Numbered from the stretch's first letter, positions 45,454 to 64,000 are shown. The stretch is 64,000 nucleotides of DNA from an uncultured Anaerolineae bacterium (GCA_937124585.1 CAKZKT010000014.1:7393-71392); one strand, 5' to 3'. A program made the numbers and translations. The notes: generated by a model from the sequence alone, not told the origin.

Positions 45454-45573
45454 AGCGAAGCCGCGGCATCTCGCCGCACGGCAAACGCAAGACGACCTGC
45501 GATCAACGGGGAACTCTTCTCTGGCGTGCGCCGTCTCCGATGACGAGACGGCGCACGTGCGTAGCGTCTCTGT

Positions 45574-45602
45574 TTGGCTTCTCATTCCGGGAGACGTATA
45601 AT
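45574..45602 (+). promoter_or_regulatory. Promoter of the LCP gene, possibly leaderless
   Basis: TTGGCT-N17-TATAAT, 8 nt before the ATG at 45611; no obvious SD. Confidence 0.5.
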
Positions 45603-45610
45603 CAACGGTT

Positions 45611-47068
45611 ATGAATGCAGAGAGACAGATCAACCTTCGACCGACCGGCCCACGCTCGCCGCTGTTGCCGGGCCTTTTGCTCGGCCTGCTTTTGACGTTG
45701 TTCATCGTGCTTTTCGTCTATGTGGCGGCCTTGTTCGTCTCGTTGGGACAGCAGGCAATCGCCGAGAGCCCGACCCAGCCGCCGTTGGCACTGCCACGGC
45801 TGGTGCGGCTGGCGCCGGTTTTCGAGCAAAATGAAGGCGCCGTTGCCGGCGTGGCGATCACACAACCCACGGGCCGGCGGTCACAGGAAGCGACGCCGGT
45901 GCTCACCGGCCGCCTAACCGTGCTGGTGATGGGTGTGGACAATCGCCCCGACGAGCCGGTGGCGCGCACCGATTCGATCATCGTGCTGACCCTGAACCCG
46001 AAGACCGGCGCCGCGGGCATGCTCTCGATCCCACGCGATGTCCTGGTCTACGTGCCGGCGCTGAACGATACCATCAAGATCAACAGCGTGCATGTCTACG
46101 GCGAAATCAACAAATTCCCTGGTGGCGGCCCGGAATTGCTCCGCCAGACCGTCGCCGAGCTGATCGGCTATCCGATTGACTATTACGTGCGCATCAATTT
46201 CGATGGCTTCCGACAGATCATTGACCTGGTCGGCGGCATCGAGATCGAGGTGGCCAAAGATATCAAGGATGACCTCTATCCTGACGAGAATTACGGCTAC
46301 GACCCCCTCTTCATCCCAGCCGGTCGGCATCACATGGACGGCGCGCTGGCGCTGAAATATGCGCGCACCCGCCACGTGGATTCCGACTACGGCCGCGCGG
46401 CCCGTCAGCAACAGGTCATCATGGCATTGAAGAATAAGCTGACGCAGCCGGGCCAGCTGGCCGGATTGCTGCCCAGGCTTCCCGGCCTGGCGTTCGCCCT
46501 GGCCAACTCGATCCAGACCGATATGCCGATCGAAAAGGCGATTGCGCTGGCGCGCACCGTGGATCAGGTGGACTTAAAAAATCCGACCCGCATCGTCATA
46601 GACAACACCATGGGCACAGACGGCATGGACTCGCGGTGGGGCTATGTGCTGCGGCCCGACATGAACAAACTGCGGGCAGCGACAGCGGCCGTCTTCGCCG
46701 ATCTCTCCGCTGATGTTTCTCCTGCCGAAGCAATGCGGCAAACGATTCAGGACGAAAATCCGCGTGTGATGGTGCTCAACGGGACGCCGGAAGCGGGCCT
46801 GGGCGCCAGTGTGGCCGACGCGCTGGCCGCAGCCGGTTACACGATCGTAAACATCGGCAATGCCGACCGGGGCGATTACACCCAAACCGTGCTGATCACT
46901 CATGGCGATGGCAAAACGGTGAGCCGCGAAGAGCTGGTGCGTCGGTTCAGCCTGATGCCGGCGCAAATCCGCTCCGAACCCCCTTCAGACGCCGTAGACC
47001 TCACCCTGATCCTGGGTGCCGATCAAATCAAGGCCAGCGCGTCCGGAGGCGCCGACCAGAGGCCTTGA
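45611..47068 (+). CDS. LCP (LytR-CpsA-Psr) protein with LytR_C domain
   Basis: VMGVD, RTDSII, LSIPRD, KINS, ALKYARTR, DYGRAARQQ; C-terminal VMVLNGT...GNAD. Confidence 0.92.
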   Translation: MNAERQINLRPTGPRSPLLPGLLLGLLLTLFIVLFVYVAALFVSLGQQAIAESPTQPPLALPRLVRLAPVFEQNEGAVAGVAITQPTGRRSQEATPVLTGRLTVLVMGVDNRPDEPVARTDSIIVLTLNPKTGAAGMLSIPRDVLVYVPALNDTIKINSVHVYGEINKFPGGGPELLRQTVAELIGYPIDYYVRINFDGFRQIIDLVGGIEIEVAKDIKDDLYPDENYGYDPLFIPAGRHHMDGALALKYARTRHVDSDYGRAARQQQVIMALKNKLTQPGQLAGLLPRLPGLAFALANSIQTDMPIEKAIALARTVDQVDLKNPTRIVIDNTMGTDGMDSRWGYVLRPDMNKLRAATAAVFADLSADVSPAEAMRQTIQDENPRVMVLNGTPEAGLGASVADALAAAGYTIVNIGNADRGDYTQTVLITHGDGKTVSREELVRRFSLMPAQIRSEPPSDAVDLTLILGADQIKASASGGADQRP

Positions 47069-47167
47069 AGTTGCAGACGCGACGCCGCTGCGTCGGCCAC
47101 CACTGATCCCCCTCTGCCTGCCGTCTGCGCCCGCGCCGGTGCCGGCTAACCCGAAAATCACTGTCCA

Positions 47168-47201
47168 ACGTGCCAGGCATCTTGCAGAGTGCCTGGCACG
47201 T
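47168..47201. repeat. REP-like palindrome, reverse orientation of the 39548 copy
   Basis: ACGTGCCAGGCA-TCTTGCAGAG-TGCCTGGCACGT. Confidence 0.85.
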
Positions 47202-47377
47202 GGGCACAGCTCGTTTTCATGGCTTGTTGTGCCCCGGCAAGGACATGGACGCTGCTCCGCCAACGCCTCCCGTTGATATGACCCATGTCATTTGTCCCGG
47301 CCGGGATTCGTGATAAATTTAGCTTGGTTGCAACAAAACAGCGCAGTCTGACAAGACCCGAACGGGAGCCCTGGAAG

Positions 47378-47755
47378 ATGGCCAAAATCCTCATCGTGGA
47401 TGATGATCCCGATTTCATTGAAATGACCTCTGTGGTTTTGGAGCGCGCCGGCCATCAGGTGGTGGAGGCAGCCAACGGCGAAGAGGGATTTGCACGCGCC
47501 AAACAGGAGAAACCGGACCTTGTGATCCTGGATGTGATCATGGATACCGTGCTGGAGGGGGTTACGATCAGCCAGCGCATGCACGAAGATCCTGAGCTGC
47601 GGAATCTGCCTGTCATCATGGTCACGTCCATTGCCAACACGGATTATGCCGAGCTTTTCCCGACCGACGAGTACATCCACATTGATGCGTTCATGAGCAA
47701 ACCCATCACCCCCGCTGCACTCCTGCGCCAGGTGGATCGGCTACTGGCCGGTTAG
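47378..47755 (+). CDS. Single-domain response regulator
   Basis: KILIVDDD, LVILDVIM, MVTS, FMSKP; no output domain. Confidence 0.9.
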   Translation: MAKILIVDDDPDFIEMTSVVLERAGHQVVEAANGEEGFARAKQEKPDLVILDVIMDTVLEGVTISQRMHEDPELRNLPVIMVTSIANTDYAELFPTDEYIHIDAFMSKPITPAALLRQVDRLLAG

Positions 47756-47781
47756 GGCGAACGAACTGCGATATTATCACC

Positions 47782-49785
47782 ATGTGGGACGCAGCCAGGA
47801 GAGCCGTGCGAAGATTCTTTGGCGCACCGTTTCAACTGGTGCTGGTGATCGCGTTCTCGCTGGTTGCAGCGACCACGATCCTCGTCGGCACCGGTGTGAT
47901 CTCGCGCACCATTCGCGACTACCTGTCCGTTACCATGGCCGAGCGGGTCGCACGCGACATGCACCTGGCGCAGGCACTTTACCAAAGCTGGCTCACCGAC
48001 ATCGCCGAAATGACCCATCACGTGACGTTGAGCCCCGCCGTCATCCAGCACTGCGCCGCGGCCGGCAGGGGTGAAAGCCAGGCCCTGGACATCATCGAGC
48101 AAGAGGTCGCCAGGGTGATCCGCGCCGAGAGATTCCCGGGCAACCACCTGGTCGCCATCCTCGATGCCGAGGGCAGCTTCGTCACCGGCCATTGGGTGCC
48201 GACGGGCGGCGCGCCGACGCTGCTACGCAACGCAGGCGACTGGACGGGATTGCCGTCAATAAAGACGGTTTGGGACGGCAACGCCGGGGTTGCAACCACA
48301 GAGGTGATCCCCTACGAAGTCCTCTCCTCTGTGGGCCTTGCGGAACAGGCCTATATCCCGTTGCTCGAAACCCCCAGGGCAGCCGATGTTCCTTTCGATC
48401 CGCGCGAAGGCCGCGCCGGACTGGCCCTGGTCAGCGTGATGCCCATCCGCCAGGACGACGGCACTCGCGTGGGCCTGGCCCTGGCTTTTCATCTCTTCAA
48501 CAACGATTTCACCCTGGTGGATCAGATCAAAGAGGTGGCGGCTGTTGATACGGCCACGATCTTCCTGGGCGACCTGCGCGTCTCGACCAACGTGCGCGGC
48601 CTGGACGGCGAACGGGCGATCGGCACTCGCCTCTCCAAAGAGGTGAGCCAGGTCGTGCTGGAACAGGGAAACCCCTACATAGGCCCGGCTTTCGTGGTTC
48701 AGGAAAACTACATCACCCGTTACGAGCCGTTGCGCAACCATGCGGGGCAGGTGATCGGGATTTTGTACGTCGGCGCGCGCGAAGCCAGGTTCGCCCGTCT
48801 GGTCAACAGCTTCAACGAAAGGGTGGCCCTGGTGGCGCTGGGCTCCATCCTGGCGACCTTCTTGCTGGCAGTGCCCGTCTCACGCGTTGTGACCCGTCCC
48901 CTGCAGGAGCTGCGGGAGCTGGCCAAGGCCAATCGGCGCGTGGCGCGCGGGGACTTGACGGTGCGCGTGCCCGTCCGGGCCGGCGGCGATGTGGGGGAGC
49001 TGGCCAGTTCGTTCAACGCCATGTTGGATCAGTTGCAGAGCACCCAGGATCAGCTGGTGCACTCGGAGAAGCTGGCCTCTTTGGGCCAGCTGGCGGCCGG
49101 CGTTGCTCATGAGCTGAACAACCCGTTGGCCACCGTCCTGCTGTTTTCGGATATCTTGCTGCGGGAATGCGGGCCGGACGATCCGCAGCGCTCCGACCTG
49201 GAGATGATCGCCAGCGAAACCCGCCGCTGCAAAGGGATCGTCGCGGCGTTACTGGACTTCGCGCGCCAGAACCAGGTCATGGCCCAGGCCACAAACCTGA
49301 ACGCGATTGTGCAACAGGTGCTCCAAATCGAAACCAAGCGCTTGGGAGATGTCCCCATCACCTTCATCGCCGAGCTGGATCCGCAACTGCCCACTATCGA
49401 AGCGGACCCGGCCCAGCTGCAGGAGGTGGTCGCCAATCTGGTCACCAACGCGATCGAGGCCATGCCCTCGGGAGGCAAGCTCACGGTGCGCACCCGGCCG
49501 GGCCCTGAAGGCATGGTGACTATGACCGTGACCGACACCGGCGTGGGCATCACGCCGGAGGATCAAGCCAAGTTGTTCGTCCCGTTCTTTACGACCAAAC
49601 CGGTGGGAAAGGGCACCGGCCTGGGCCTGGCGATCGTTTATGGCATCGTCAAGATGCACCGCGGCCAGATCACCGTGCAAAGTCAGCAGGGCAAAGGCAC
49701 AACCTTTACCGTCACGTTGCCGGTGCGCCTGCTGCCCGGTGACAATTCCAGCATTAACTCGAGAAAAGACAGCGCATTTATATGA
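47782..49785 (+). CDS. Membrane sensor histidine kinase (Cache-HAMP-HisKA-HATPase, NtrB-like)
   Basis: ATIFLGDLRVSTNV Cache segment, HAMP, EKLASLGQLAAGVAHELNNP, NAIEAM, DTGVG, FFTTK, GTGLGL. Confidence 0.92.
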   Translation: MWDAARRAVRRFFGAPFQLVLVIAFSLVAATTILVGTGVISRTIRDYLSVTMAERVARDMHLAQALYQSWLTDIAEMTHHVTLSPAVIQHCAAAGRGESQALDIIEQEVARVIRAERFPGNHLVAILDAEGSFVTGHWVPTGGAPTLLRNAGDWTGLPSIKTVWDGNAGVATTEVIPYEVLSSVGLAEQAYIPLLETPRAADVPFDPREGRAGLALVSVMPIRQDDGTRVGLALAFHLFNNDFTLVDQIKEVAAVDTATIFLGDLRVSTNVRGLDGERAIGTRLSKEVSQVVLEQGNPYIGPAFVVQENYITRYEPLRNHAGQVIGILYVGAREARFARLVNSFNERVALVALGSILATFLLAVPVSRVVTRPLQELRELAKANRRVARGDLTVRVPVRAGGDVGELASSFNAMLDQLQSTQDQLVHSEKLASLGQLAAGVAHELNNPLATVLLFSDILLRECGPDDPQRSDLEMIASETRRCKGIVAALLDFARQNQVMAQATNLNAIVQQVLQIETKRLGDVPITFIAELDPQLPTIEADPAQLQEVVANLVTNAIEAMPSGGKLTVRTRPGPEGMVTMTVTDTGVGITPEDQAKLFVPFFTTKPVGKGTGLGLAIVYGIVKMHRGQITVQSQQGKGTTFTVTLPVRLLPGDNSSINSRKDSAFI

Positions 49786-51743
49786 AGCTACAGACCAAAT
49801 TCGCACTGGCCGTAATTATCCTTTTCGCGCTATTAGCCGCCGCCATGGCCGTGTTGAGCGCCACCCTGGTCAACCGCTACACCATTCGCGAGGCCGAGAA
49901 CCGCGTCCGCATCTACATGCGCGCGGCGTGGGAGATCCACGACAGCAAAATCGGCCGAACCCGGGCGGCGCTGGAAGTGCTGGCGCGTGATCCCGTGGTA
50001 GTGAACTTCTTGGCCGCCGGCGCCCCGGAGGCGATGACAGTCCAACTGCGGGACACGCTGGAGGCGATCCGCCGCGACCAGAAGATGGACATCCTGAACG
50101 TCCTGTCCCCCGAAGGCCGCGTCCTGATGCGCACGCGCGCGCCCTACAACAAAGGCGACAGCCTGATACAAGACCCGTTGATCAAGCAGGCTGCCGCCCT
50201 GCGGGAAAGCGTCACGGGGAACATCATCATGGAACAGGACCGGCTGGACATCGAGGGCAGCGAACTGATCGAACGGTGTCTGGCGGTAGGCAATGAGCCC
50301 CGTGGGCTGTTCGGCGGCGCGGCCGTGCCCGTCCTGGATGCGAACGACCGCCTGGTCGGCTTCATCGAGATGGGCTCGCTCCTGAACGGCGCTACCGAAA
50401 AGGTGGACGCCATCCGCAATGCGGTCTTCGCCAACGAGATCTACAACGGGAAGCCGGTGGGCACGGCCACCATCTTCATGGGGGACCTGCGGGTCTCGAC
50501 CAATGTGCTGGACAACCAGGGCCGCCGCGCCGTCGGCACGCGTGTCTCCAAAGAGGTGGCCGACCGCGTGCTGGGGGAAGGCCTCTCGTGGACCGGACGC
50601 GCGTTCGTGGTGGACACCTGGTATCTCGCCCAATACGATCCGATCCGGAATCCCGATGGCAAAGTCGTCGGCATGCTGTATGTCGGCGAACTGGAACAAA
50701 AATACCTGGACCTGCGCGCGCGGACTGTGGCGCTGAACCTGACGGTGATCCTGGCCGGCATGCTGCTCTCCTTCGTGGGTGCCCTGGGGCTGGTGAGAAA
50801 CATCGTCAAGCCGATCCGGGCCCTGGCAGGCGCCACCCAACGCCTGGCCGCCGGTGACTTCAGCTACCGCGTCGATATCAGACGCTCCGATGAGCTGGGC
50901 GACCTGGCCTCCTGCTTCAACAAGATGGCCGACCGGTTGGAGCAGCAACGCCAGGAACTGGAGACCCGCCAAAGAGAGCTGGAGGCGGTAAGCCAGCAGT
51001 TGCAAACCACCAACCGGAACTACATCGAGATGCTGGGCTTCGTCACCCACGAGCTGAAGAACCCGCTCACGTCGGCCATCATGGGGCTCTACACCGTCAA
51101 AGACGGCTACCTGGGCGAACTGAACCCGGCCCAAAAGAAGAGTCTGGAGACGGTCGCCCGGAGCCTGGACTATTTCCAGGACATGGTGCGCAACTACCTG
51201 GACCTGTCTCGGCTGGAGCAAGGTGAACTGAAGGTGACGAAACGCCGCCTGGAGCTGCGGAAAGCGGTGGTGGAACCTGCGCTGGAGAGCCTGGAGCGCC
51301 AGCTGCAGGAACGCCGGATGGCCTTAGACAACCGCATCTCGCCGGCGCTGATCGTCAACGCCGACCCGACGCTCATCCGCATCGTGTACGACGACCTGCT
51401 CTCCAACGCGGTGAAATATGGCCGGGAAGGAGGCACCATCCTGCTGGAGGCAGAGGAAAGCGACGACGGCGTGACCCTGAGCGTGCGCAACGACGGCGAG
51501 GGCATACCGGCCGAGAAGAAATCGCAGCTCTTCCAGCGCTTCAGCCGGCTCGACACGCCCAGCGCCACAGGCAAAAAGGGCACGGGCCTGGGATTGTACA
51601 TCTGCAAAGAGATTGTCGAGAAACACGGCGGCAAGATCTGGGCCGATTCCAAATCGGGGGAATGGGTGAAGTTCAGCTTCACCCTCCCAAACGGCATTCA
51701 CAACACCCAACCCAAAGGGGGGACACGAGACACGCATGTTTAG
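49782..51743 (+). CDS. Second membrane sensor histidine kinase (Cache-HAMP-HisKA-HATPase)
   Basis: ATIFMGDLRVSTNV, HAMP, VTHELKNP, SNAVKY, NDGEGI, GTGLGL; ATGA overlap with the first kinase. Confidence 0.92.
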   Translation: MKLQTKFALAVIILFALLAAAMAVLSATLVNRYTIREAENRVRIYMRAAWEIHDSKIGRTRAALEVLARDPVVVNFLAAGAPEAMTVQLRDTLEAIRRDQKMDILNVLSPEGRVLMRTRAPYNKGDSLIQDPLIKQAAALRESVTGNIIMEQDRLDIEGSELIERCLAVGNEPRGLFGGAAVPVLDANDRLVGFIEMGSLLNGATEKVDAIRNAVFANEIYNGKPVGTATIFMGDLRVSTNVLDNQGRRAVGTRVSKEVADRVLGEGLSWTGRAFVVDTWYLAQYDPIRNPDGKVVGMLYVGELEQKYLDLRARTVALNLTVILAGMLLSFVGALGLVRNIVKPIRALAGATQRLAAGDFSYRVDIRRSDELGDLASCFNKMADRLEQQRQELETRQRELEAVSQQLQTTNRNYIEMLGFVTHELKNPLTSAIMGLYTVKDGYLGELNPAQKKSLETVARSLDYFQDMVRNYLDLSRLEQGELKVTKRRLELRKAVVEPALESLERQLQERRMALDNRISPALIVNADPTLIRIVYDDLLSNAVKYGREGGTILLEAEESDDGVTLSVRNDGEGIPAEKKSQLFQRFSRLDTPSATGKKGTGLGLYICKEIVEKHGGKIWADSKSGEWVKFSFTLPNGIHNTQPKGGTRDTHV

Positions 51744-51768
51744 CGTTATGGCTAAGGGAGGCCAGACG

Positions 51769-52185
51769 ATGACCCGCAAACAACGCATCCTCGTCGTGGA
51801 CGATGACGTCCAGGTGGTGGACGCCATGGAAACCTTGTTGCAAGGTGTAGGATACGAGACCTTGCATGCTTACCGGGCCGAAGATGGAATCGAGCTGGCC
51901 CGGCAGGCCAAACCGGATTTGATGCTGCTCGATGTCATGTTCGCGGGGCCGCCCGGCCCGGACGGGTTCGAGACGGCCCGCACCATGCGCGGGGACCCGG
52001 AACTTCGAGACATCCCCATCATCATCCTGTCCGGGATCAAGACCGTGCTGGGGATCAGCTACGACGTGGCTCCAGACGAGACGTGGATGCCCGTCAAAGC
52101 GTTCCTGGAGAAGCCGGTGCGGCCTGACAGGCTGTTGAAAGAGATCGAGAAGATCCTCGGACCGCGTGAAAAGGCAGTCGCATAA
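51769..52185 (+). CDS. Single-domain response regulator
   Basis: ILVVDDD, LMLLDVM, ILSG, FLEKP; SD AAGGGAGG. Confidence 0.88.
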   Translation: MTRKQRILVVDDDVQVVDAMETLLQGVGYETLHAYRAEDGIELARQAKPDLMLLDVMFAGPPGPDGFETARTMRGDPELRDIPIIILSGIKTVLGISYDVAPDETWMPVKAFLEKPVRPDRLLKEIEKILGPREKAVA

Positions 52186-52188
52186 CCC

Positions 52189-54429
52189 ATGACAACGCGC
52201 GGCAAGGTCCTGGTCATTGATGATGAACTGGGCATTCGCGAGGGCTGCAAGCGGGCCCTGACCTCCCAGGGCTTCACGGTTGATGTGGCGCAGGACGGCC
52301 TTGACGGGCTGGCAAAGATCAAGGCCAACGGCTACGACGTGATTCTGCTGGACATCATGATGCCGGGGATCGGGGGCATCGAACTGCTGAGCCTGATCCG
52401 CGAGCACGACCCGGAGGCGGTCTGCATCATCATCACCGGTTACGGCACCGTGCAGGTGGCGGTGAACGCCATCAAACGCGGGGCCTATGACTTCCTTACC
52501 AAGCCGTTCACCGTGGACGACCTGCTGTTGGCGGTCAGCCATGGGCTGGAGCACCGGCGCCTGTTGTTGGAAGAGCAGCGGCTGAAGGCGCTAGAGGCCG
52601 AAACGCAGCAACTGGCTTACGAGAAACGCAAACTGGAGGAGGTGGAAAAAGCCAAGGCAACCTTCATCCGTCTGGTCACCCACGAGCTGCAAGCACCCAT
52701 CGCAGCCATCCAGGGCTATCTGCAGTTGATCCTGGACGGCTACGTTGAGCCCGAGAAACAACGGGAGGTGCTGGAAAAGGCGTCGGCGCGCGCCCAGGAG
52801 CAGATGGCGTTGATCGCCGACCTGCTGACCCTCAGCAAATTGCGCGATGCCCGCCAGCGCGAACAGGCTACCGAAGTGCGGCTGGACGAGCTGCTGCGCC
52901 AGGTGCTCGAGCCGTTTCAAGCGCAAGCCGTCGAAAAGGGCGTGTTGTTGCGCGCGAACATCGAGGGAGAAATCCCGGCCGTGCGTGGCATTGCCGGTGA
53001 GTTCAAGAGCCTCTTTGCGAACTTGATCAGCAACGCCATCAAATACACGCCGGCGGGCGGTTCCGTGGCAGTCAGCCTGCGCACGGATGACGGCAAGGTC
53101 ATCGGCTGCGTCAGCGACACCGGCATCGGCATCCCTCCCGAGGCGCGCGATCGCCTCTTCTCCGAATTCTTTCGAGCCGACAACGCCAAGGCCATGGCGT
53201 TGCGCGGCACGGGGCTGGGCCTGGTGATCGTCAAGCAGGCGGTGGAAAACGCCGGTGGACAGATTTGGGTCGAGTCAGAGCTTAACCGCGGGACAACTTT
53301 CACTTTTACCATACCGACAATGGCCGTCGCTGAAGAGCGACCAGAGCCCGTGAGTATTGAACCAAAGAAAGGAGGTCGGATGAGCCTAAGAATCATCGAA
53401 AAAAGCGCGCTGCCCGCGTTCGTTGCCGGCATCATGCGCGAGTACGAGGTGGTGGGGCCCCAGACCAAAGAGATATTGCCCAACGGCAAGAGCCAGTTCG
53501 TGTTCGGCCCCCTCACCAATCCCCATCAATTGCGGTTGGATTACGACACCACCGTTCTGCCGCCCAAGAAGTACCTTTTGCCCCAAGAAGAGGTGCTGTT
53601 CACCTTCGACACAGGAAGCCTCGCCGCCACGCCCCGCTTCGACACGCAGCCGCGTGTGCTGTTCGGCGTTCACACCTGCGATATCCACGCCTTGGCCCTG
53701 CTGGACGCCGTCTTTGCCACCGGCCAGCGCGATGAGCACTACCTCAAGCGGCGAGCCTCGACCCTGATCGTCGGCATCGAGTGCCTGGCGCCGTGCGATG
53801 AACACAGCTTCTGCAAGAGCATGGGCACCCTGACGGCGGATAAAGGATTCGACCTGCACCTCATTGACCTGGGGCAACGCTACGCCGTAGAGGTGGGCAC
53901 CGCGGCCGGCGAGGCGCTGCTGGCCAGACACGCGGCCGCGCGCATGGCCGATGAAAGTGACATCGAACTGCTGAACCGGGTGCTTTCGGAGAAATGGCCG
54001 CGCTTCCCCTATCGGCTCGATTTCGACGGCAGCGAATTGCCCAACCTGATGGCGCTGAGCTACAAAGACCCGCTCTGGGAGGAACTAGGTCAACGTTGTC
54101 TGTCATGCGCGGCGTGCAACCTGGTGTGCCCCACCTGCTATTGCTTCAACGTCGTTGACCAGGTGACGCTGGACCGGAAAAACGGCGAGCGGATACGGAA
54201 ATGGGATAGCTGTCAATTGGATGAATTCGCCCGCGTCGCCACCGGTGAAAACTTCCGACACAAGCGCTCACAACGCCAGCGTCACCGCTTCTTCCGCAAA
54301 GGCAAGTACATCCCGGAGATGCACGGCGAGCTGGGCTGTGTGGGCTGTGGCCGCTGTGCGCGCGCTTGCCTGGTAGACATCACCCCGGTCGGCGTCTGGA
54401 ACAAGTTGTACCAGGCGCACGCGAGCTAG
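52189..54429 (+). CDS. In-frame fusion: hybrid REC-HisKA-HATPase kinase plus sulfhydrogenase beta (HydB/AsrA-like) Fe-S subunit
   Basis: aa 1-~385 carry VLVIDDE, LLDIMMP, FLTKP, VTHELQAP, SNAIKY, DTGIG and GTGLGL. From aa 398 come PPKKYL, GVHTCD, CLSCAACNLVCPTCYC and CVGCGRCARAC. No stop codon lies between them. Confidence 0.88.
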   Translation: MTTRGKVLVIDDELGIREGCKRALTSQGFTVDVAQDGLDGLAKIKANGYDVILLDIMMPGIGGIELLSLIREHDPEAVCIIITGYGTVQVAVNAIKRGAYDFLTKPFTVDDLLLAVSHGLEHRRLLLEEQRLKALEAETQQLAYEKRKLEEVEKAKATFIRLVTHELQAPIAAIQGYLQLILDGYVEPEKQREVLEKASARAQEQMALIADLLTLSKLRDARQREQATEVRLDELLRQVLEPFQAQAVEKGVLLRANIEGEIPAVRGIAGEFKSLFANLISNAIKYTPAGGSVAVSLRTDDGKVIGCVSDTGIGIPPEARDRLFSEFFRADNAKAMALRGTGLGLVIVKQAVENAGGQIWVESELNRGTTFTFTIPTMAVAEERPEPVSIEPKKGGRMSLRIIEKSALPAFVAGIMREYEVVGPQTKEILPNGKSQFVFGPLTNPHQLRLDYDTTVLPPKKYLLPQEEVLFTFDTGSLAATPRFDTQPRVLFGVHTCDIHALALLDAVFATGQRDEHYLKRRASTLIVGIECLAPCDEHSFCKSMGTLTADKGFDLHLIDLGQRYAVEVGTAAGEALLARHAAARMADESDIELLNRVLSEKWPRFPYRLDFDGSELPNLMALSYKDPLWEELGQRCLSCAACNLVCPTCYCFNVVDQVTLDRKNGERIRKWDSCQLDEFARVATGENFRHKRSQRQRHRFFRKGKYIPEMHGELGCVGCGRCARACLVDITPVGVWNKLYQAHAS
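53380..54429 (+). CDS. hydB: Group 3b hydrogenase beta subunit translated from an internal start
   Basis: SD AAAGGAGG directly precedes the in-frame ATG at 53380 (MSLRIIEK). Confidence 0.65.
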   Translation: MSLRIIEKSALPAFVAGIMREYEVVGPQTKEILPNGKSQFVFGPLTNPHQLRLDYDTTVLPPKKYLLPQEEVLFTFDTGSLAATPRFDTQPRVLFGVHTCDIHALALLDAVFATGQRDEHYLKRRASTLIVGIECLAPCDEHSFCKSMGTLTADKGFDLHLIDLGQRYAVEVGTAAGEALLARHAAARMADESDIELLNRVLSEKWPRFPYRLDFDGSELPNLMALSYKDPLWEELGQRCLSCAACNLVCPTCYCFNVVDQVTLDRKNGERIRKWDSCQLDEFARVATGENFRHKRSQRQRHRFFRKGKYIPEMHGELGCVGCGRCARACLVDITPVGVWNKLYQAHAS

Positions 54430-54438
54430 GAGGCTGTT

Positions 54439-55275
54439 ATGGCAATACCGACAGTCGGTTCAATCTACGTTCCCAGCCCGGCGCGCATTGCCAAAGTGCA
54501 GCAGCTGACCGCGCTGGAGAAGCTGTTTACCATTGAGCTGCCCTGGGGCCAAAGCCTGGGACATGAGCCGGGCCAATTCGTCGAGGTGAGCATCTTCGGC
54601 GTCGGTGAGGCGCCCATCTCCATCAGTTCGTCCCCCAGCCGAAGCAACGGCACCTTCGAGCTTTGCGTGCGCAAGGTGGGCGACGTCACCGCGGCCATGC
54701 ACAAGCTGGAGGTCGGCGCCAGCATCGGCGTGCGCGGCCCGTTCGGCCACGGCTTCCAAATCGAGAAGATGCGCGGCAAAGATATCCTGTTCGCACCCGG
54801 CGGCCTGGGGCTGGCGCCTGCGCGCAGTTTGATCAACCAGGTCTTGGACGAGCGCGGCTCCTTCGGCCGCGTCATCATCCTGTACGGCGCCAAGAACCCC
54901 TCTGAACTGCTGTTCAAGGACGAATTGGAGGCATGGAGCAAGCGGCCGGATGTGGAGTTCCATGTGACCGTGGATCGGCCCGACTCGACCTGGAACGGCA
55001 ACGTCGGGGTGATCACTACCCTGTTCAAGAAGATCCATGTAAACCCGCGCAACACCGTGGCGGTAACCGTTGGCCCGCCCATCATGTACCGCTTCGTGTT
55101 GATGGAACTGCTGGGCAAGGGCATCCCGGAGACCCAGATCTGGATGTCCCTGGAACGGCGGATGAAATGCGGTGTCGGGAAATGCGGTCACTGTCAGATC
55201 AACAACCTGTACTGCTGCCAGCAAGGCCCGGCCTTCACTTACGCCCAGATCAAAGGCGTCGAGGAGGCGATTTGA
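54439..55275 (+). CDS. hydG: Group 3b hydrogenase gamma subunit (FAD/NAD(P), 2Fe-2S)
   Basis: PGQFVEV, GEAPISISS, RGPFG, GGLGLAP, LERRMKCGVGKCGHC, CCQQGP. Confidence 0.9.
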   Translation: MAIPTVGSIYVPSPARIAKVQQLTALEKLFTIELPWGQSLGHEPGQFVEVSIFGVGEAPISISSSPSRSNGTFELCVRKVGDVTAAMHKLEVGASIGVRGPFGHGFQIEKMRGKDILFAPGGLGLAPARSLINQVLDERGSFGRVIILYGAKNPSELLFKDELEAWSKRPDVEFHVTVDRPDSTWNGNVGVITTLFKKIHVNPRNTVAVTVGPPIMYRFVLMELLGKGIPETQIWMSLERRMKCGVGKCGHCQINNLYCCQQGPAFTYAQIKGVEEAI

Positions 55276-56021
55276 TGAAACCCAAAGTGGCTTTCTTCGA
55301 CTTCACCAGTTGCGAAGGCTGCCAGCTCACGGTGGTGGACAGCCTGCAAACGCATACCGAGCTCCTCGATGCGGTCGAGATCGTACAATTTCGTGAGGCG
55401 ATGACCGAAAAGGGCGAGGACTACGCGGTGGCCTTTGTGGAGGGCTCCATCAGCCGGCCCAGTGACGAGCCGCGGCTGAAGCGCATTCGCGAGCAAGCCG
55501 CGGTGCTGGTCGCCCTGGGTGCCTGCGCGCACCTGGGCGGCATCAACGCGATCCGCAACGCCATGCCGCTGGACGACGTGCGCCGCTACGTGTACGGCGA
55601 CAAGGCCGACTGGTACGAAACCTACCCGGCCCGGCCGATCAGCGCCGTCGTGCCGGTAGACGCCGTGATCCCTGGCTGCCCCATTGACCGCAACGAATTC
55701 CTGGAGGTGGTCAAGGCGCTGTTGTTGGGCAAAAAGCCGCCGCTGCCCGATTATCCCCTGTGTGTGGAATGCAAGCTCAAGGAACACACCTGTCTGTTTC
55801 ATAAGGGCGGCTATTGCCTGGGGCCGGTAACGCGCGCGGGCTGCGGCGCCATTTGTCCCACCTATGGCGACGGTTGCGAAGGCTGCCGAGGCCTGATCCC
55901 TGACCCGAACCGCAACGCCATGAGCGAGGTCTTGTTGGAACACGGCCTGACCGTAGATGCGATGCTGGCGCGCTGGACGATGTTTGGGACGTATCAGCAG
56001 ATGGAAACGGGGAAAAAATAG
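55275..56021 (+). CDS. hydD: Group 3b [NiFe]-hydrogenase small (delta) subunit
   Basis: FTSCEGCQ, VEGS, ALGACA, IPGCP, LCVEC, CLGPVTRAGC...CP...CEGCRG. Confidence 0.92.
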   Translation: MKPKVAFFDFTSCEGCQLTVVDSLQTHTELLDAVEIVQFREAMTEKGEDYAVAFVEGSISRPSDEPRLKRIREQAAVLVALGACAHLGGINAIRNAMPLDDVRRYVYGDKADWYETYPARPISAVVPVDAVIPGCPIDRNEFLEVVKALLLGKKPPLPDYPLCVECKLKEHTCLFHKGGYCLGPVTRAGCGAICPTYGDGCEGCRGLIPDPNRNAMSEVLLEHGLTVDAMLARWTMFGTYQQMETGKK

Positions 56022-56122
56022 AAGCTGGAAGTGAGCAGGCAGAAAGCCCAAGATGATGGTTTCTGGTTGGCCGTCAGTCGTCGGGCACCGGTCGCCCGCT
56101 TCCGGCCACCGGCTTCCGGTTA
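56022..56122. repeat. Degenerate heptamer-periodic intergenic stretch
   Basis: aagctgg aagtgag caggcag aaagccc ... ccggtcg cccgctt ccggcca ccggctt ccggtta. Confidence 0.45.
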
Positions 56123-56137
56123 AGGAGAGGATGATTT

Positions 56138-57427
56138 ATGGCAAATGTCAACATAGAAGTTCATCACGTCACCCGTGTCGAGGGGCATGGGAACATCGTG
56201 GTCAATGCCAAAAACGGCGTGCTGGAGGAATGCCGGCTGGAGATCGTGGAGACCCCGCGCTTCTTCGAAGCGATGTTGCGCGGCCGGCCATACACGCAGT
56301 CCAGCCATATCACCAGCCGGATCTGCGGCATCTGCGCCGTGGGCCATGCCACGGCCAGCCTGCGCGCCACCGAGAACGCGCTGGGCATCGAGCCGTCGGA
56401 GCAGACGGTGTTGCTCCGCAAGCTGAACTTCCACGGCGAGATCATTGACAGCCATGTGCTGCACGTGTACATGCTGGTCGCGCCCGACATGTTCGGCGTT
56501 GGCTCAGTGATCCCCCTGGTGAAGACGGCGCCCGATGTGGTATTGCGCGCGCTGCGCATCAAGAAGCTTTCCGGCGACCTGTGCGCAACCATCGGCGGCC
56601 GCCACACCCATCCGATCGCCATGGCCGTGGGCGGCTTTACCCATTACCCCACCGTGGCCGAGCTGAAGGCGCTGCGCCAGCGGCTGGTGGACGCCCGGGC
56701 CGACATGGACGAGACGGTCAAGCTGGCGAAAACGCTGCCCTGGCCGCAGTTCAACCGCGAGACCGAATACGTGGCGCTGCGCAAAGAGGACGAGTACGCT
56801 TTCATTGACGGCACCATCACCACGACCGACGGCGGAAAGTATCCAGTGAAGGACTACCGCAAAGTCACCAACGAACGCATGGTGCCGCACTCCACCGCCA
56901 AGTACACCGCGCACAAGCGTGAATCGTACATGGTGGGCGCGCTGGCGCGCTTCAACGTCAATTACGACAAGCTGCACCCGCGCGCTCAGGCCGCGGCCGA
57001 GGAACTGGGCCTGAAGCCGATCTGCACCAACCCATACCTGAACACGGCGGCCCAGGTGGTGGAGATGGTGCACAGCGTCGAAGATTCCATCCGCATCATT
57101 GACGAGCTGTTGGTGCGGGGCATCCATCCGGAACCGCTGCCGCCGTTCCCCGGCCGGGGCGGCGAGGGGGTCGGCTCCTGCGAGGTGCCGCGCGGGATCC
57201 TCTTCCACAACTATCAGATCGGCGAGAACGGCTTGGTAAAGAACGCCAACTGCATCATCCCCACAGGGCAAAACCTGGCGAACATCGAAGCGGACATGCG
57301 CAAACTGGTGCCGGAGATCCTCGATCGGCCCCAGGACGAAATCCGACTGATGCTGGAGATGCTGGTGCGCGCGTACGACCCGTGCATCTCGTGCTCGGTG
57401 CACTTTCTGGAGGTGAAGTTTGTTTGA
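56138..57427 (+). CDS. hydA: Group 3b [NiFe]-hydrogenase large (alpha) subunit
   Basis: TRVEGHG, L1 SRICGICAVGH, EVPRG, L2 YDPCISCSVH, followed by a 7-aa cleavable tail. Confidence 0.95.
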   Translation: MANVNIEVHHVTRVEGHGNIVVNAKNGVLEECRLEIVETPRFFEAMLRGRPYTQSSHITSRICGICAVGHATASLRATENALGIEPSEQTVLLRKLNFHGEIIDSHVLHVYMLVAPDMFGVGSVIPLVKTAPDVVLRALRIKKLSGDLCATIGGRHTHPIAMAVGGFTHYPTVAELKALRQRLVDARADMDETVKLAKTLPWPQFNRETEYVALRKEDEYAFIDGTITTTDGGKYPVKDYRKVTNERMVPHSTAKYTAHKRESYMVGALARFNVNYDKLHPRAQAAAEELGLKPICTNPYLNTAAQVVEMVHSVEDSIRIIDELLVRGIHPEPLPPFPGRGGEGVGSCEVPRGILFHNYQIGENGLVKNANCIIPTGQNLANIEADMRKLVPEILDRPQDEIRLMLEMLVRAYDPCISCSVHFLEVKFV

Positions 57428-58397
57428 CGACGGACGAAAGACGAAGGACGAAGGACGAAAGACGGACGAAACCGTTGATCATTCGTCATTCGTCATTCGT
57501 CCGGTCTTGGTCCTGGGCCTCGGCAACCCGCTGCAAGGGGATGATGGCGTCGGTTGCCGGGCCATCGAGGCGTTGCAGCAGTACACGCTGCCGGAGACGG
57601 TCGAAACCCTGGACGGCGGCACCCCCGGCATCGGGTTGTTGCACCTGCTGGAGGGGCGGCGGCGTGCCATTCTGGTGGACGCGGCCGAGATGGGCCAGCC
57701 GGCCGGCACCATCGTCCGGTTTCGAGCCGCAGACGTAACCCTGGCCGGCGCCGCAGAACGCCTCTCGCTCCACCGGACAGCGGTAGCCGATGCGCTGGCG
57801 CTGGCAGAGGCGCTGACGCTGTCGCTGCCGGACATCGTGTTTTTCGGGGTGCAGCCGGAACGTGTCGGCTGGGGCCAGGACCTGAGCCCCAAAGTCGCGG
57901 CCGCCGTACCACAGGTGGTACAGGCGATCTTGCATGAGATCTCTCACGATCCAAAGGAAGGGATACACATGCCCACGAAAAAAGAGGCTCCTGAAACCAA
58001 AGGCCTGATCTTGATCGTTGACGACGATCCAGACATGGTAGAAGCTTTGCGCATGCCGCTCGAGGCCCACCGCTACTCCGTAGCCCATGCTGCCAGCGGT
58101 CGTCTGGCCCTGAAGATGATCCCGGAGCTGCGACCCGACCTCATCATCCTGGACGTGATGATGGAAACGACCACCGAAGGTTTCCAGGTGTCCCTCGCGC
58201 TGCGCAGCCCCGACCCGCGCTCCGAATACGCGGCCTACAAAGACATCCCCATCCTAATGCTGACCTCGATCCACTCGACCACGCCGTTGCGCTTCGGGCC
58301 GGATCAGGACTACCTGCCGGTGGACGAGTTCATAGACAAGCCGGTGGACCCAGACAAGTTGGTTGCCAAAATCAACGCATTACTGGCCCGCAAGTAG
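57420..58397 (+). CDS. In-frame fusion: hydrogenase maturation protease plus receiver domain
   Basis: GLGNPLQGDDGVG, LDGGT, ILVDA, SLH, then from the ATG at 57969 (SD AAGGAAGG) LILIVDDD, IILDVMME, MLTS, FIDKP. No stop codon lies between them. Confidence 0.85.
   Translation: MFDDGRKTKDEGRKTDETVDHSSFVIRPVLVLGLGNPLQGDDGVGCRAIEALQQYTLPETVETLDGGTPGIGLLHLLEGRRRAILVDAAEMGQPAGTIVRFRAADVTLAGAAERLSLHRTAVADALALAEALTLSLPDIVFFGVQPERVGWGQDLSPKVAAAVPQVVQAILHEISHDPKEGIHMPTKKEAPETKGLILIVDDDPDMVEALRMPLEAHRYSVAHAASGRLALKMIPELRPDLIILDVMMETTTEGFQVSLALRSPDPRSEYAAYKDIPILMLTSIHSTTPLRFGPDQDYLPVDEFIDKPVDPDKLVAKINALLARK
57424..57501. repeat. Heptamer tandem/inverted repeat inside the protease 5' end
   Basis: GACGAA(A/G) repeated about five times, then TTCGTC(A) three times; the arms are complementary. 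Confidence 0.85.
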
Positions 58398-58412
58398 CGC
58401 CGCTCGGATACA

Positions 58413-58447
58413 CAGATGCCAGGCGCAGCCTGAACGCCTGGCATCTG
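58413..58447 (+). terminator. Hairpin closing the hydrogenase unit, related to the REP family
   Basis: CAGATGCCAGGCG-cagcctgaa-CGCCTGGCATCTG. Confidence 0.65.
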
Positions 58448-58568
58448 ATTAACCGGGACTATGACAGGCATCATTGCCGGGCCGACCGCTTTATGCTTTA
58501 AGAACGCTGAGCTTTCTATTCGACTCGCCAGCTATCTGGCTTTGCCAGCCATATTGAGGCGTTGAAGC

Positions 58569-59039
58569 ATGCTTGATATGACAACAAACTTCGACCTGGC
58601 GCCGTTGCATGCGATCCTGGAAGAGTATGGCAGTCAAAAAGGCACCGTCATCCCCATCCTGCAGCGGGTGCAGGACGCGTACGGTTACCTGCCGAAGGAA
58701 ATCCTGGCCGAAATATCGAAGCGGACCAACATCCCCCTCACCCAGCTCATGGGAGTAGCGACCTTCTACACCCAGTTCCGCTTGAGCCCGCGGGGTAAGC
58801 ATCTTATTCGGGTATGCGACGGAACGGCTTGTCATGTAAGTGGAGCGCCCCACATTGTAAGGGCTATCGAAAAGGAATACGATATGCCGGCCGGATCTTC
58901 CTCGCCTGATCTTAAGTATACGCTCGAGGTTGTATATTGCGTGGGCGCATGTGGACTGGCTCCGGTCGTCATCGTGGATGACAAGGTGTATGGGAGGCTC
59001 TCTCCCGATGCTGTCCTGGAAAAAGTGCGTGATGTCTGA
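58569..59039 (+). CDS. NuoE/HydC-like 2Fe-2S subunit
   Basis: IPILQRVQDAYGYLP, ATFYTQF, VCDGTACH, CVGACGLAP. Confidence 0.92.
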   Translation: MLDMTTNFDLAPLHAILEEYGSQKGTVIPILQRVQDAYGYLPKEILAEISKRTNIPLTQLMGVATFYTQFRLSPRGKHLIRVCDGTACHVSGAPHIVRAIEKEYDMPAGSSSPDLKYTLEVVYCVGACGLAPVVIVDDKVYGRLSPDAVLEKVRDV

Positions 59040-59065
59040 TAAGGCAACCCGGCAGGAGGCGCGAG

Positions 59066-60979
59066 ATGTCCTTATTGAAATCCACTGATGATCTGCTGAG
59101 CCTGCGCGAGAGGGCAATATACGCTTTAGGGGTCCGTGTGCCGGGCGCGTCCCAACCTCAGTTTCGCAACGACGTAGTCGTTTGTGGCAGCACAGGCTGT
59201 CGGTCGGCCAATTCCCAGCAGGTTCTGAAAGCGCTACAGGCTCAGATCATCCAGAGGGAGTTGGACAAGGCTGTACGCGTGATTTCTACTGGTTGCCGCG
59301 GTTTATGTGCCGTGGGACCGGTGATGCAGATTTTCCCCTCCGGTGTGTTCTACAACCGCGTCCAGATTACGGACGTGCCAGAAATTGTCGAACAGACGCT
59401 GGTCGGGGGCAAGATCATCGAAAGGCTTTGTTTCCGTGATGTGGCGCAGAACAAAAGGCTCGCGCATTATCTGGACATTCCGTTTTATAACCGACAACTG
59501 CCCATTGTCCTACGCAACTGCGGCTTGATTGATCCGCAAAACATAGAGGAATACATCGCCACTGATGGCTACTTGGGATTGACTAAAGCATTAGAGCTAT
59601 CACCCGAGGAGGTCATCGAGATCATCAAAAATTCAGGCTTGCGTGGGCGTGGCGGAGCCGGCTTTTCCACAGGCATTAAATGGGAGCTTTGTCGGCGGGT
59701 CGCAAAACAACCGAAGTACGTGATTTGCAACGCGGATGAAGGTGATCCTGGCGCGTTCATGGACCGTTCCATCCTGGAAGCTGACCCGCACAGCGTGATC
59801 GAAGGGATGGTAATTGCAGCCTATGCGATTGGAGCGCCGCTAGGATACATCTATGTACGTGCTGAATACCCGTTGGCTGTGATTCACCTCCGAAGAGCTA
59901 TCGCCCAAGCGCGGGCGTACGGCCTACTGGGCGAAAATATCCTGGGCAGCGGCTTCTCCTTTGACCTGCACCTGAAGGAGGGGGCGGGCGCGTTCGTGTG
60001 CGGCGAGGAGATGGCACTCATCGCCTCCGTCGAAGGCCGCCGCGGAGAGCCGCGGCCCAAACCACCCTTCCCGGCCGTCTCCGGCCTCTGGAACCGGCCA
60101 ACGGTCGTCAACAACGTCAAAACCTACGCCCTGACGCCCCGGATCATCCTGAGGGGGCCAGAGTGGTTCTCGAGCATCGGCACGTCCAAATCGCCGGGCA
60201 CCGCCGTGTTCGCCTTGACCGGAAAGATCAGAAACACCGGCCTGATCGAAGTGCCCATGGGCATCACCCTGCGCGAGATCATCTACGACATTGGCGGCGG
60301 CATCCCCAAGAAGCGCCAGTTCAAGGCCGTCCAAACCGGCGGCCCGTTGGGCGGATGCCTGCCCGCCTCGGCGCTAGACACGCCGGTGGATTTCGATTCC
60401 CTCACCGAAGCCGGCGCCACCATGGGCTCGGGGGGCATGATCGTGGTTGACGAGCGCACCTGTATGGTTGAATTCGCCAAATACTTCCTGACCTTCGCTA
60501 CTGCCGAATCGTGTGGCAAGTGCGTGCCGTGCCGCATCGGCGGCCAGCGACTGCTGGAAGTGCTCACCCGCATCACCTCAGGCGCAGGCACCCCGCGCGA
60601 TTTGGACGAGATTGAACGCATCTCCCGCAACATGCGCGAGGCGTCGCTCTGTGCGCTGGGCCAGCTGACACCCGGCCCGGTCATGTCGGCGCTGCGCTTC
60701 TTCCGTGAGGAGTACGAGGCGCATGTCTACGACAAATTCTGTCTGGCCGGCGTCTGCAAAGGGCTCTATGAGCTGCACGTGGACGCCGACAGATGCGCGG
60801 GATGCGGCTTGTGCAAGAAGGCCTGTTCACAAGACGCGATCAGCGGCAACCGCAAGGAACCGCATGTCATTGACCAGCTCAAATGCATCCAGTGCGGCGC
60901 TTGTGTCGAGGCGTGCAACCTGGATGCCATCGTAGCTCAGCCGCGAGGAAAAGGCGTACATGCCATTGCGGTGGCTTAG
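59066..60979 (+). CDS. NuoF/HydB(BfuB)-like FMN/NADH subunit with extra Fe-S domains
   Basis: N-terminal CGSTGC...GCRGLC, GLRGRGGAGF, NADEGDPGAFMDR, FVCGEE, GGPLGG, ESCGKCVPCR, SLCALG, H-x5-C-x4-C, and a C-terminal 2x[4Fe-4S]. Confidence 0.93.
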   Translation: MSLLKSTDDLLSLRERAIYALGVRVPGASQPQFRNDVVVCGSTGCRSANSQQVLKALQAQIIQRELDKAVRVISTGCRGLCAVGPVMQIFPSGVFYNRVQITDVPEIVEQTLVGGKIIERLCFRDVAQNKRLAHYLDIPFYNRQLPIVLRNCGLIDPQNIEEYIATDGYLGLTKALELSPEEVIEIIKNSGLRGRGGAGFSTGIKWELCRRVAKQPKYVICNADEGDPGAFMDRSILEADPHSVIEGMVIAAYAIGAPLGYIYVRAEYPLAVIHLRRAIAQARAYGLLGENILGSGFSFDLHLKEGAGAFVCGEEMALIASVEGRRGEPRPKPPFPAVSGLWNRPTVVNNVKTYALTPRIILRGPEWFSSIGTSKSPGTAVFALTGKIRNTGLIEVPMGITLREIIYDIGGGIPKKRQFKAVQTGGPLGGCLPASALDTPVDFDSLTEAGATMGSGGMIVVDERTCMVEFAKYFLTFATAESCGKCVPCRIGGQRLLEVLTRITSGAGTPRDLDEIERISRNMREASLCALGQLTPGPVMSALRFFREEYEAHVYDKFCLAGVCKGLYELHVDADRCAGCGLCKKACSQDAISGNRKEPHVIDQLKCIQCGACVEACNLDAIVAQPRGKGVHAIAVA

Positions 60980-63837: not shown

Positions 63838-63922
63838 CGTGCATCATTTCACAATATCTGCGCGGGCGTACAATGGTACAGGAATCTTGACGGCAACGCG
63901 CTTTTATCAGGAGGGATATCTC

Positions 63923-64000
63923 ATGCGCTTAGGCAGAGTACTGGAAATCATCGAAGGCAAGCTCATCTCCGAAGACGCCGACCTGGACACGGAAGTGCAG
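63923..64000 (+). CDS. DRTGG-domain-type protein, 3'-truncated by the window edge
   Basis: SD AGGAGG; MRLGRVLEIIEGKLISEDADLDTEV resembles DRTGG protein N-termini. Only 26 aa are visible. Confidence 0.5.
   Translation, partial: MRLGRVLEIIEGKLISEDADLDTEVQ

Follow-up and report, generated by a model that had tools for sequence, protein, structure and literature searches.

A candidate two-component network without a DNA-binding output accompanies a group 3b [NiFe] hydrogenase and a formate dehydrogenase in an uncultured Anaerolineae bacterium

Hydrogenases physically tied to a histidine kinase are represented by the H2-sensing circuits HoxBC-HoxJ-HoxA of Cupriavidus necator and HupUV-HupT-HupR of Rhodobacter capsulatus. 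In both circuits the hydrogenase is a group 2b sensor enzyme that has neither a cleavable tail nor an endopeptidase of its own, and in such HoxJ/HupT-type systems a PAS kinase docked non-covalently is paired with an NtrC-type DNA-binding regulator. To our knowledge, hydrogenases are regulated through transcription and the supply of maturation genes, and the only hydrogenase-kinase complexes described are group 2b sensors that end on a transcription factor. Here we analyzed a 64,000-nucleotide stretch of DNA from an uncultured Anaerolineae bacterium (GCA_937124585.1, CAKZKT010000014.1:7393-71392; hereafter the window), in which nine closely packed genes on the + strand (47375-58397) combine a group 3b hydrogenase with three histidine kinases and four receiver (REC) domains. 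In contrast to the Hox and Hup circuits, one kinase is fused to the diaphorase beta subunit (HydB) of a catalytic group 3b enzyme whose large subunit (HydA) has a tail and an associated protease, and the array contains no DNA-binding regulator and no sigma-54 or helix-turn-helix (HTH) domain. Gene content, catalytic residues, group 3b identity, synteny, co-occurrence, recurrent fusions and formate-ligand residues were all observed directly. The reading we favour, with confidence evenly divided, is a dedicated two-component network without DNA-binding output, tied both physically and genetically to a soluble formate/H2 redox unit, which on this reading is the group 3b NAD(P)-linked [NiFe] hydrogenase together with an NAD-linked selenocysteine (Sec) formate dehydrogenase. 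The preliminary description of the locus presented it as a candidate for a new system, and a literature search on receivers or kinases associated with group 3b enzymes, sulfhydrogenase or maturation proteases found nothing specific; the parts all belong to known families, and their combination is, as far as the literature search reaches, undescribed. A survey of hydrogenase neighbourhoods lists kinases and receivers among the frequent neighbours, with no further analysis (PMC12727194).

Open reading frame (ORF) listing and Pfam scans of the window gave the gene series REC1, HK-A, HK-B, REC2, REC-kinase::HydB, HydG, HydD, HydA and HycI::REC4 (HK, histidine kinase; a double colon marks a fusion). 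REC1 (47375-47755, on the + strand like the window genes downstream of it) is a stand-alone receiver of what we call type A (Response_reg, E=3e-20); its ORF opens at 47285, and the probable start was set at M31 (47375), giving 126 aa, because orthologues measure 125-126 aa. HK-A (47782-49785) is a membrane sensor kinase with the Pfam order transmembrane segment (TM), sCache_3_3, TM, HAMP, HisKA and HATPase_c, and HK-B (49782-51743) is its paralogue, also a Cache-HAMP sensor kinase by Pfam. The outer domain of each measures about 300 aa and carries the sCache_3_3 module at its end, followed by the second TM. REC2 (51769-52185), again a stand-alone type-A receiver by Pfam, has an ORF that opens at 51736 and a probable start at 51769; its orthologues invariably lie directly 5' of the fusion gene. 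Adjacent genes overlap or are spaced by 3-30 nt, with the exception of 116 nt 5' of hydA, and this close spacing is the sole evidence for reading them as a single operon; sites found in a promoter and terminator scan of 46800-59200 were no commoner than in shuffled sequence and speak neither for nor against it.

The translations of all four receivers have intact DD, D, T/S and K residues, and the H, N, G1 and G2 boxes are intact in all three kinases, with an H-box of HELNNP in HK-A, HELKNP in HK-B and HELQAP in the HydB-fused kinase. These data bear out the gene list and the earlier count of three kinases and four receivers, none with an HTH or sigma-54 domain, and the pre-KP segments quoted for three of the receivers (DEYIHIDAF, DETWMPVKAF and DQDYLPVDEF) are present in the window translations. 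No HTH, sigma-54 or Hpt domain was detected in the proteins of 47375-58397 (Pfam, E<=0.01). As to Hpt- or Spo0B-like phosphotransfer, no Hpt domain was found in the scanned array proteins of the window, of L097 (the same contig across and beyond the window end) or of L098 (a 93%-identical relative). With no Hpt domain found, a strict multi-step phosphorelay of the His-Asp-His-Asp kind was ruled out; the locus had first been labelled a phosphorelay, and kinase cascade is the term we prefer. The fused REC-kinase retains a complete ATPase domain and is therefore regarded as a kinase, not a transferase.

The signalling genes accompany the hydrogenase across species. A scan of one genome per species yielded 80 loci, mainly from metagenome-assembled genomes of Anaerolineae and other Chloroflexota, which were annotated with profiles of the window's domains; 57 species-level loci had a complete hydBGDA with at least 1.3 kb downstream. 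The next gene is hycI in 53 of these 57 loci, a stand-alone receiver lies within three genes in 51, and an adjacent REC or HK gene of any kind is present in 54. A kinase is also found downstream in 33 of the 48 loci having at least 3.2 kb of downstream sequence; in the loci scanned it is usually a PilS-like six-transmembrane (6TM) protein with GAF, HisKA and HATPase domains, or a soluble GAF kinase. A Phycisphaerae contig carries hydBGDA, HycI::REC and a 6TM kinase, and the full array of the window recurs in six loci (L001, L015, L016, L020, L098 and L099), the HydB parts being 76-93% identical. Failure of the signalling genes to stay beside the hydrogenase in relatives had been named beforehand as a way to refute the proposal; the check across relatives found them conserved there in 51 of the 57 loci.

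Co-occurrence was examined with a profile of REC4-like receivers in 41 related genomes, where the high-scoring class spans 198-222 bits. Of the 15 genomes with this HydB, 14 have a REC4-type receiver (at least 198 bits), as against none of the 26 without it (Fisher p = 4e-10). The exception, G035, has a HydB at 44% identity and no REC4-type receiver. Within the window's own genome, the five best type-A matches (125-200 bits) all fall in this cluster, and the next scores 92 bits. On the genome comparisons, the pairing of signalling genes and hydrogenase is not a matter of chance.

The fusion gene (52189-54429; Pfam) encodes a 746-aa protein composed of REC (7-116), a long helix, HisKA (156-219), HATPase_c (272-377) and HydB from about residue 398, with Fer4_22 at 636-731. 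About 30 protein clusters among the long HydB relatives share this REC-HisKA-HATPase-Fer4_22 architecture, and identity in their HydB part is 63-100%. An alignment of 21 fusion orthologues revealed that H165, N282, the DTGIGI and GTGLGL motifs and the HydB cysteines are invariant, and that D55 is at least 90% conserved; the linker between kinase and HydB is about 20 aa long, varies among orthologues and is probably flexible. In whole genomes of the same family the fusion is intact in 8 of 25; a ninth has it truncated where the contig stops, one more has it split, and another has a plain HydB. An assembly or frameshift artefact was rejected for both fusions of the locus, because each recurs in many independent assemblies with junctions free of stops. 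The P0027 and P0029 fusions have a receiver that lacks its Thr and Lys. In two lineages (L017:514-12760 and the P0027 contig), REC-kinase::HydB and HydG are immediately followed by NuoE, a rubrerythrin-like gene and NuoF.

The REC-kinase part aligns with LvrB of Leptospira (8vc9) over residues 50-377 (E=9e-17), and also with 6qrj. It has the architecture of a Rec-controlled kinase, with an N-terminal receiver, a helical linker, the dimerization/histidine phosphotransfer (DHp) and catalytic (CA) domains and no other sensor domain, as in LvrB. LvrB is the prototype of this class: phosphorylation of its Rec domain frees the catalytic domain and activates the kinase, which signals to an anti-sigma factor (PMC13269768). 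From this alignment and the LvrB mechanism, the fused protein would be a second-tier kinase, not a sensor itself. LvrB is free-standing and has an anti-sigma target, whereas the kinase of the window is fused to an Fe-S subunit, with receivers devoid of output domains as its candidate partners. REC3, the receiver domain of this kinase, is placed by the receiver tree with a REC-kinase that stands alone at a different hydrogenase locus (L093), and its neighbours in the tree are the receivers of REC::HydB::HydG proteins. The latter are single chains of about 775 aa and make up at least about 60 of the 120 listed clusters, drawn from 1,317 significant long relatives; hydD and hydA follow in the three loci examined, where no kinase is adjacent. 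A HycI::HydB fusion was also found. At one Chloroflexota locus (L006:8072-9823), a pyridine-nucleotide-disulfide oxidoreductase (Pyr_redox_2) with a receiver domain adjoins REC::HydB::HydG.

The second fusion, HycI::REC4 (57420-58397; Pfam HycI and Response_reg), is a 325-aa protein that joins a maturation endopeptidase (HycI 46-172, 1e-21) to a type-A receiver (197-319). About 55 of the clusters listed are HycI::REC proteins, with identities of 40-100%; a further one stands at 32%, and one is named Phycisphaerae. In 44 of these fusions the A31 metal residues D41, D87 and H118 are conserved and the receiver residues D245 and K307 are invariant; both kinds of fusion are kept across dozens of genomes. 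In the nearest unfused relatives (L001 and L020), hycI and the receiver are separate neighbouring genes. An AlphaFold2 (AF2) model of HycI::REC4 (predicted local distance difference test score, pLDDT, 84; predicted template modelling score, pTM, 0.50) has two folded domains and a disordered linker, and a Foldseek search with it returned HybD/HycI folds (1cfz, 5ttx and 5zby) and ordinary receivers. Type-A receivers have a longer Pro/Gly-rich segment N-terminal to the conserved Lys, with a low-confidence coil at the site of helix alpha-4 in the HycI::REC4 model; as modelled, they are without this helix. Among receiver-enzyme regulators, CheB likewise has a receiver tied by a flexible linker to a hydrolase, and phosphorylation lifts the inhibition of the enzyme. 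Here, by contrast, the receiver is C-terminal, the partner is a hydrogenase maturation protease and alpha-4 is missing in the model. When 122 receiver domains were placed in a tree, REC1, REC2 and REC4 fell in one clade with all 50 post-hycI receivers of other genomes, with a support of 99 in the Shimodaira-Hasegawa-like approximate likelihood ratio test (SH-aLRT), which upholds the suggestion that the three terminal or stand-alone receivers are paralogues.

Both fusion junctions carry a possible translation start. At the kinase-HydB junction (53371-53382, + strand), GGAGG is followed after 4 nt by the ATG of M398, and the string A GGA GGN CGG ATG is identical in the window, L001, L015, L016, L019 and L020, in which the linker peptides differ. 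M398 may be an internal start that gives free HydB. At the HycI-REC junction (57954-57971, + strand), the Shine-Dalgarno (SD)-like sequence AAGGAAGGG occurs with the ATG of M184; a GGAGG-like motif lies 5-8 nt 5' of an in-frame ATG in the window, L098, L015, L016, L099 and the Phycisphaerae locus L095, and the Met is at least 90% conserved across the 44 fusions. M184 may be an internal start yielding a free receiver.

The hydrogenase subunits follow the fusion gene: HydG (54439-55275), the gamma subunit for FAD, NAD(P) and 2Fe-2S (FAD_binding_6, NAD_binding_1 and DHODB_Fe-S_bind); HydD (55275-56021), the small (delta) subunit, which starts MKPKVAFFDF (Oxidored_q6); and HydA (56138-57427), the [NiFe] large subunit of group 3b type (NiFeSe_Hases). 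The best Protein Data Bank (PDB) matches of HydA are 5yxy from T. kodakarensis (5.5e-72) and 9nez_D of P. furiosus soluble hydrogenase I (SHI; 8.5e-71), both group 3b, compared with 2e-52 for the group 3c enzyme Mvh and 6e-36 for an NAD-reducing enzyme. The HydB part matches the SHI beta subunit 9nez_B (E=3e-57). With a Fer4_22 beta, a flavin/NAD(P) gamma, an Oxidored_q6 and a NiFeSe_Hases subunit, the Pfam content is that of a group 3b enzyme, and the assignment to this group made in the preliminary description holds for HydA and HydB, which are closest to solved group 3b enzymes. HydA has both nickel-binding CxxC motifs (RICGICAVGH, and DPCISCSVH followed by the tail FLEVKFV), and because of these and the short, cleavable C-terminal tail it is read as a catalytic enzyme that needs its own protease. 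NAD(P)-linked turnover of H2 by HydBGDA is predicted. P. furiosus soluble hydrogenase I (HydBGDA; 9nez, 9nf0) and T. kodakarensis 5yxy have the same four subunits in the same order, including the gamma FAD/NAD(P) domains, and group 3b enzymes also share a dedicated A31 endopeptidase. The window differs in that the N-terminus of HydB bears a receiver and a complete histidine kinase, the C-terminus of the endopeptidase bears a receiver, and kinase and receiver genes lie within the operon. Elsewhere in the same genome there are three further [NiFe] large-subunit genes; in the flanking sequence retrieved, an endopeptidase gene adjoins two of them. One [NiFe] large-subunit gene of this genome (G000:C71:40842-42401; 770 bits to the full Pfam model) contains a single in-frame TGA, and its product may be a [NiFeSe] enzyme.

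The sensor modules of HK-A and HK-B matched only two PDB entries, 8py1 and 8py0, which are formate-bound single-module Cache domains (PMC11804620). In HK-A, the T of DTATIF, the R of GDLRVSTN and the Y of ITRYEPL align with T105, R118 and Y167 of 8py1 (chain index offset 12); in HK-B the Arg and Tyr ligands are aligned, and the Thr was placed by eye. The residues of the formate pocket are therefore in place, namely an Arg for the salt bridge and a Thr and a Tyr as hydrogen-bond donors. These sole solved relatives, the formate Cache sensors PacF, Atu0526 and the R3/R6 chemoreceptor domains (8py1, 8py0; PMC11804620), share the ligands and belong to chemoreceptors, whereas the modules of the window are parts of histidine kinases and are preceded by about 200 aa of additional N-terminal sequence; formate binding by them is predicted. 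Formate is the obvious candidate signal for HK-A and HK-B, since a formate dehydrogenase adjoins the array and relatives have a formate channel there.

This dehydrogenase starts with a NuoE-like 2Fe-2S subunit (58569-59039), called as an ORF, the orthologues of which carry PF01257 (2Fe-2S_thioredx) in L001 and L098; a profile built from the single NuoE ORF finds orthologues in L001, L015 and L016, in a conserved position. It is followed by a NuoF-like FMN/NAD subunit with extra Fe-S domains (59066-60979; Complex1_51K, NADH_4Fe-4S, 2Fe-2S_thioredx and Fer4) and by the catalytic subunit, FdhA, with NuoG-like Fe-S domains (60994-63837; Pfam). The sole internal TGA of fdhA (62143-62145), read as selenocysteine, gives U421 in the motif HCARLUHS, at the usual Sec position, and standard ORF calls split the gene there, in the window as in L098 and L099. 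The start of a gene with a DRTGG domain (63839-64000; Pfam) reaches the window end. Beyond it on the same contig (within L097, C14:70000-72877) lie REC5 and REC6, which share 68% identity with REC4 and 69% with REC2, respectively, and then a kinase-like gene of which the contig, ending there, contains the start. The preliminary description had closed the array at 58397; its gene set stands, and its end does not, as the signalling genes continue past the window. In L098 the order is NuoE, a small ORF, NuoF, FdhA, a FocA-type channel, an AsnC-type protein, DRTGG, REC, REC and kinase, which brings the array to six or seven receivers and four kinases; the AsnC-type (AsnC-RAM) ligand domain has 75 aa and no HTH. 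Across the conserved array of about 25 kb, in this genome and in L098, no DNA-binding or anti-sigma domain was found by Pfam. The segment 58400-60000, comprising nuoE and the 5' part of nuoF, has a G+C content of 0.56 compared with about 0.63 around it, and an additional ORF that stands between nuoE and nuoF in relatives (121-132 aa) has no counterpart in the window; the G+C drop and the missing ORF suggest that this segment was replaced. In L017, a restriction-modification pair of the ApaLI type is inserted 5' of the FdhA gene.

The data suggest a pairing of these kinases with the receivers, formate as the ligand, and the enzyme or its maturation as the target. The lack of an output domain, the strict co-occurrence and the three kinds of covalent link make the hydrogenase, either its diaphorase or the processing of HydA, the most economical target. 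We give about an even chance to a scheme in which formate-sensing kinases drive a HydB-tethered Rec-controlled kinase together with receivers that have no output domain and whose target is the hydrogenase or its maturation protease. In this scheme, the membrane Cache-HAMP kinases HK-A and HK-B would sense extracytoplasmic formate and pass phosphate to the small type-A receivers, to the N-terminal receiver of the HydB-fused kinase, or to both. Phosphorylation of that receiver would turn on the tethered kinase, as in the LvrB type, which would then charge the receivers held at the enzyme, chiefly the one fused to HycI. The phosphorylated receivers lacking alpha-4 could contact the HydB/HydG diaphorase or affect the last proteolytic step of HydA maturation, and the outcome would be H2 production or uptake matched to formate supply. 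More tentatively, and with somewhat less than an even chance, the pathway would end on a metalloenzyme and not on DNA, with a kinase built into the enzyme and receivers that gate diaphorase electron flow or the proteolytic maturation of HydA. The pairing in dozens of genomes suggests that the signal, probably formate, may act directly on the enzyme as well as on its genes.

If this scheme is correct, external formate would set, at the protein level, the amount of H2 made or consumed, and the HydB-fused kinase and protease-fused receiver would form a direct and fast link from environmental sensing to the H2/formate redox balance, which is central to syntrophy in fermenters of the Anaerolineae type. 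The variants REC::HydB::HydG, HycI::REC and hycI-REC-6TM kinase would then represent an undescribed form of hydrogenase control that is widespread in Chloroflexota and occurs at least once in Planctomycetota, and the natural fusions would indicate which parts probably touch.

Several observations weigh against this scheme. Same-family genera without this 3b HydB also have REC1-like type-A receivers of lower score, so part of the type-A family is not tied to the hydrogenase. Some relatives carry an ordinary kinase with an OmpR-type regulator, or with a regulator that has an OmpR-sized tail, upstream of the operon; transcriptional control of such operons does exist. In the L017 and P0027 lineages, REC-HK::HydB and HydG are present at a locus without hydD and hydA. 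The AF2 model has no confident HycI-REC interface and does not distinguish tethering from allosteric contact; the fusion may thus be a mere tether. Since SD-like motifs with an ATG are kept at both junctions, HydB and the receiver may additionally be produced as separate proteins, in which case the fusions could be nearly neutral and less important than they look. The solved formate sensors, each with a single module, are about half as large as the Cache sensor region.

A different direction of signalling, which we consider unlikely, is that the hydrogenase is itself the sensor, with the HydB-fused kinase reading the Fe-S redox state (the H2/NAD(P)H balance) and reporting through receivers to some other target, in analogy to the HoxBC-HoxJ and HupUV-HupT complexes. 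A group 2b-like sensor hydrogenase was rejected, since HydA belongs to the 3b type, bears a tail and has a dedicated endopeptidase, and this catalytic character speaks against a sensing role as well. The input side of the kinase, N-terminal to DHp, is a receiver with an LvrB-like helix and not HydB, the HydB linker is short, variable and probably flexible, and the commoner REC::HydB::HydG chain places a receiver, an input device, on the enzyme, with no adjacent kinase in the three loci examined. A sensing role would nevertheless agree with the covalent attachment of the kinase to an electron-transfer subunit and with its H-box, which lacks the Thr/Asn of the usual phosphatase motif, unlike those of HK-A and HK-B; retention of REC-HK::HydB in loci without hydD and hydA likewise fits a HydBG module that reads redox state.

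Single-domain receivers often serve as sinks or connectors. The locus might be regulated conventionally, through an unlinked DNA-binding or sigma/anti-sigma partner, with the receivers as sinks, shuttles or connectors and the fusions inconsequential; we assign this a low probability. About 67 ORFs of the genome contain a receiver, and in many of them the tail could accommodate an output domain; internal starts at both junctions could render the fusions dispensable, and LvrB, the closest studied Rec-controlled kinase, targets an anti-sigma factor (PMC13269768). Such a partner is not encoded in the conserved array of this genome or of L098, the REC4-type receiver follows the enzyme across the 41 genomes, and three kinds of receiver-enzyme fusion are maintained with intact phosphorylation residues, all of which run counter to the conventional account. 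If the receivers were ordinary connectors to a distant regulator, the finding would shrink to a conserved yet conventional regulatory neighbourhood.

That the target is general NAD(P)H-linked electron flow through HydBG, NuoEF and formate dehydrogenase, and not the [NiFe] site or maturation, is improbable as a separate account; it overlaps the favoured scheme rather than opposing it. Against it, the top-scoring subclade of receivers comes after hycI, is found fused to HycI, and is missing wherever the hydrogenase is. In its favour, type-A receivers and a 6TM kinase flank NuoE-NuoF in same-family genera without this HydB, the order NuoE-NuoF-REC1 occurs in L001 and L020, REC5 and REC6 lie 3' of the formate dehydrogenase, and the receiver::Pyr_redox_2 flavoprotein lies beside REC::HydBG in L006. 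The REC1-like receivers by NuoEF and the lineages without hydDA would make NAD(P)H flavoprotein modules, not the [NiFe] site, the common partner.

Upstream of REC1, the region 43336-47068 encodes a 705-aa protein, with an NHL-repeat match so weak as to fall below the repeat significance threshold, and an LCP (LytR_cpsA_psr) enzyme. The LytR_cpsA_psr gene (45611-47068) was rejected as a regulator because it belongs to a cell-envelope enzyme family, though its position is conserved. No functional link between this pair and the hydrogenase was found. The 705-aa protein and LCP pair is also upstream in L001, and a large ORF followed by an LCP gene is present in L015, L020 and the P0027 contig. In same-family genera without this HydB, the loci L100 (G008:C6:988001-1008000) and L101 (G019:C9:219001-239000), whose receivers are of type A, have the order REC-REC-NuoE-NuoF(419 aa)-REC-ACT-6TM kinase, with the ACT gene confirmed in L100 only.

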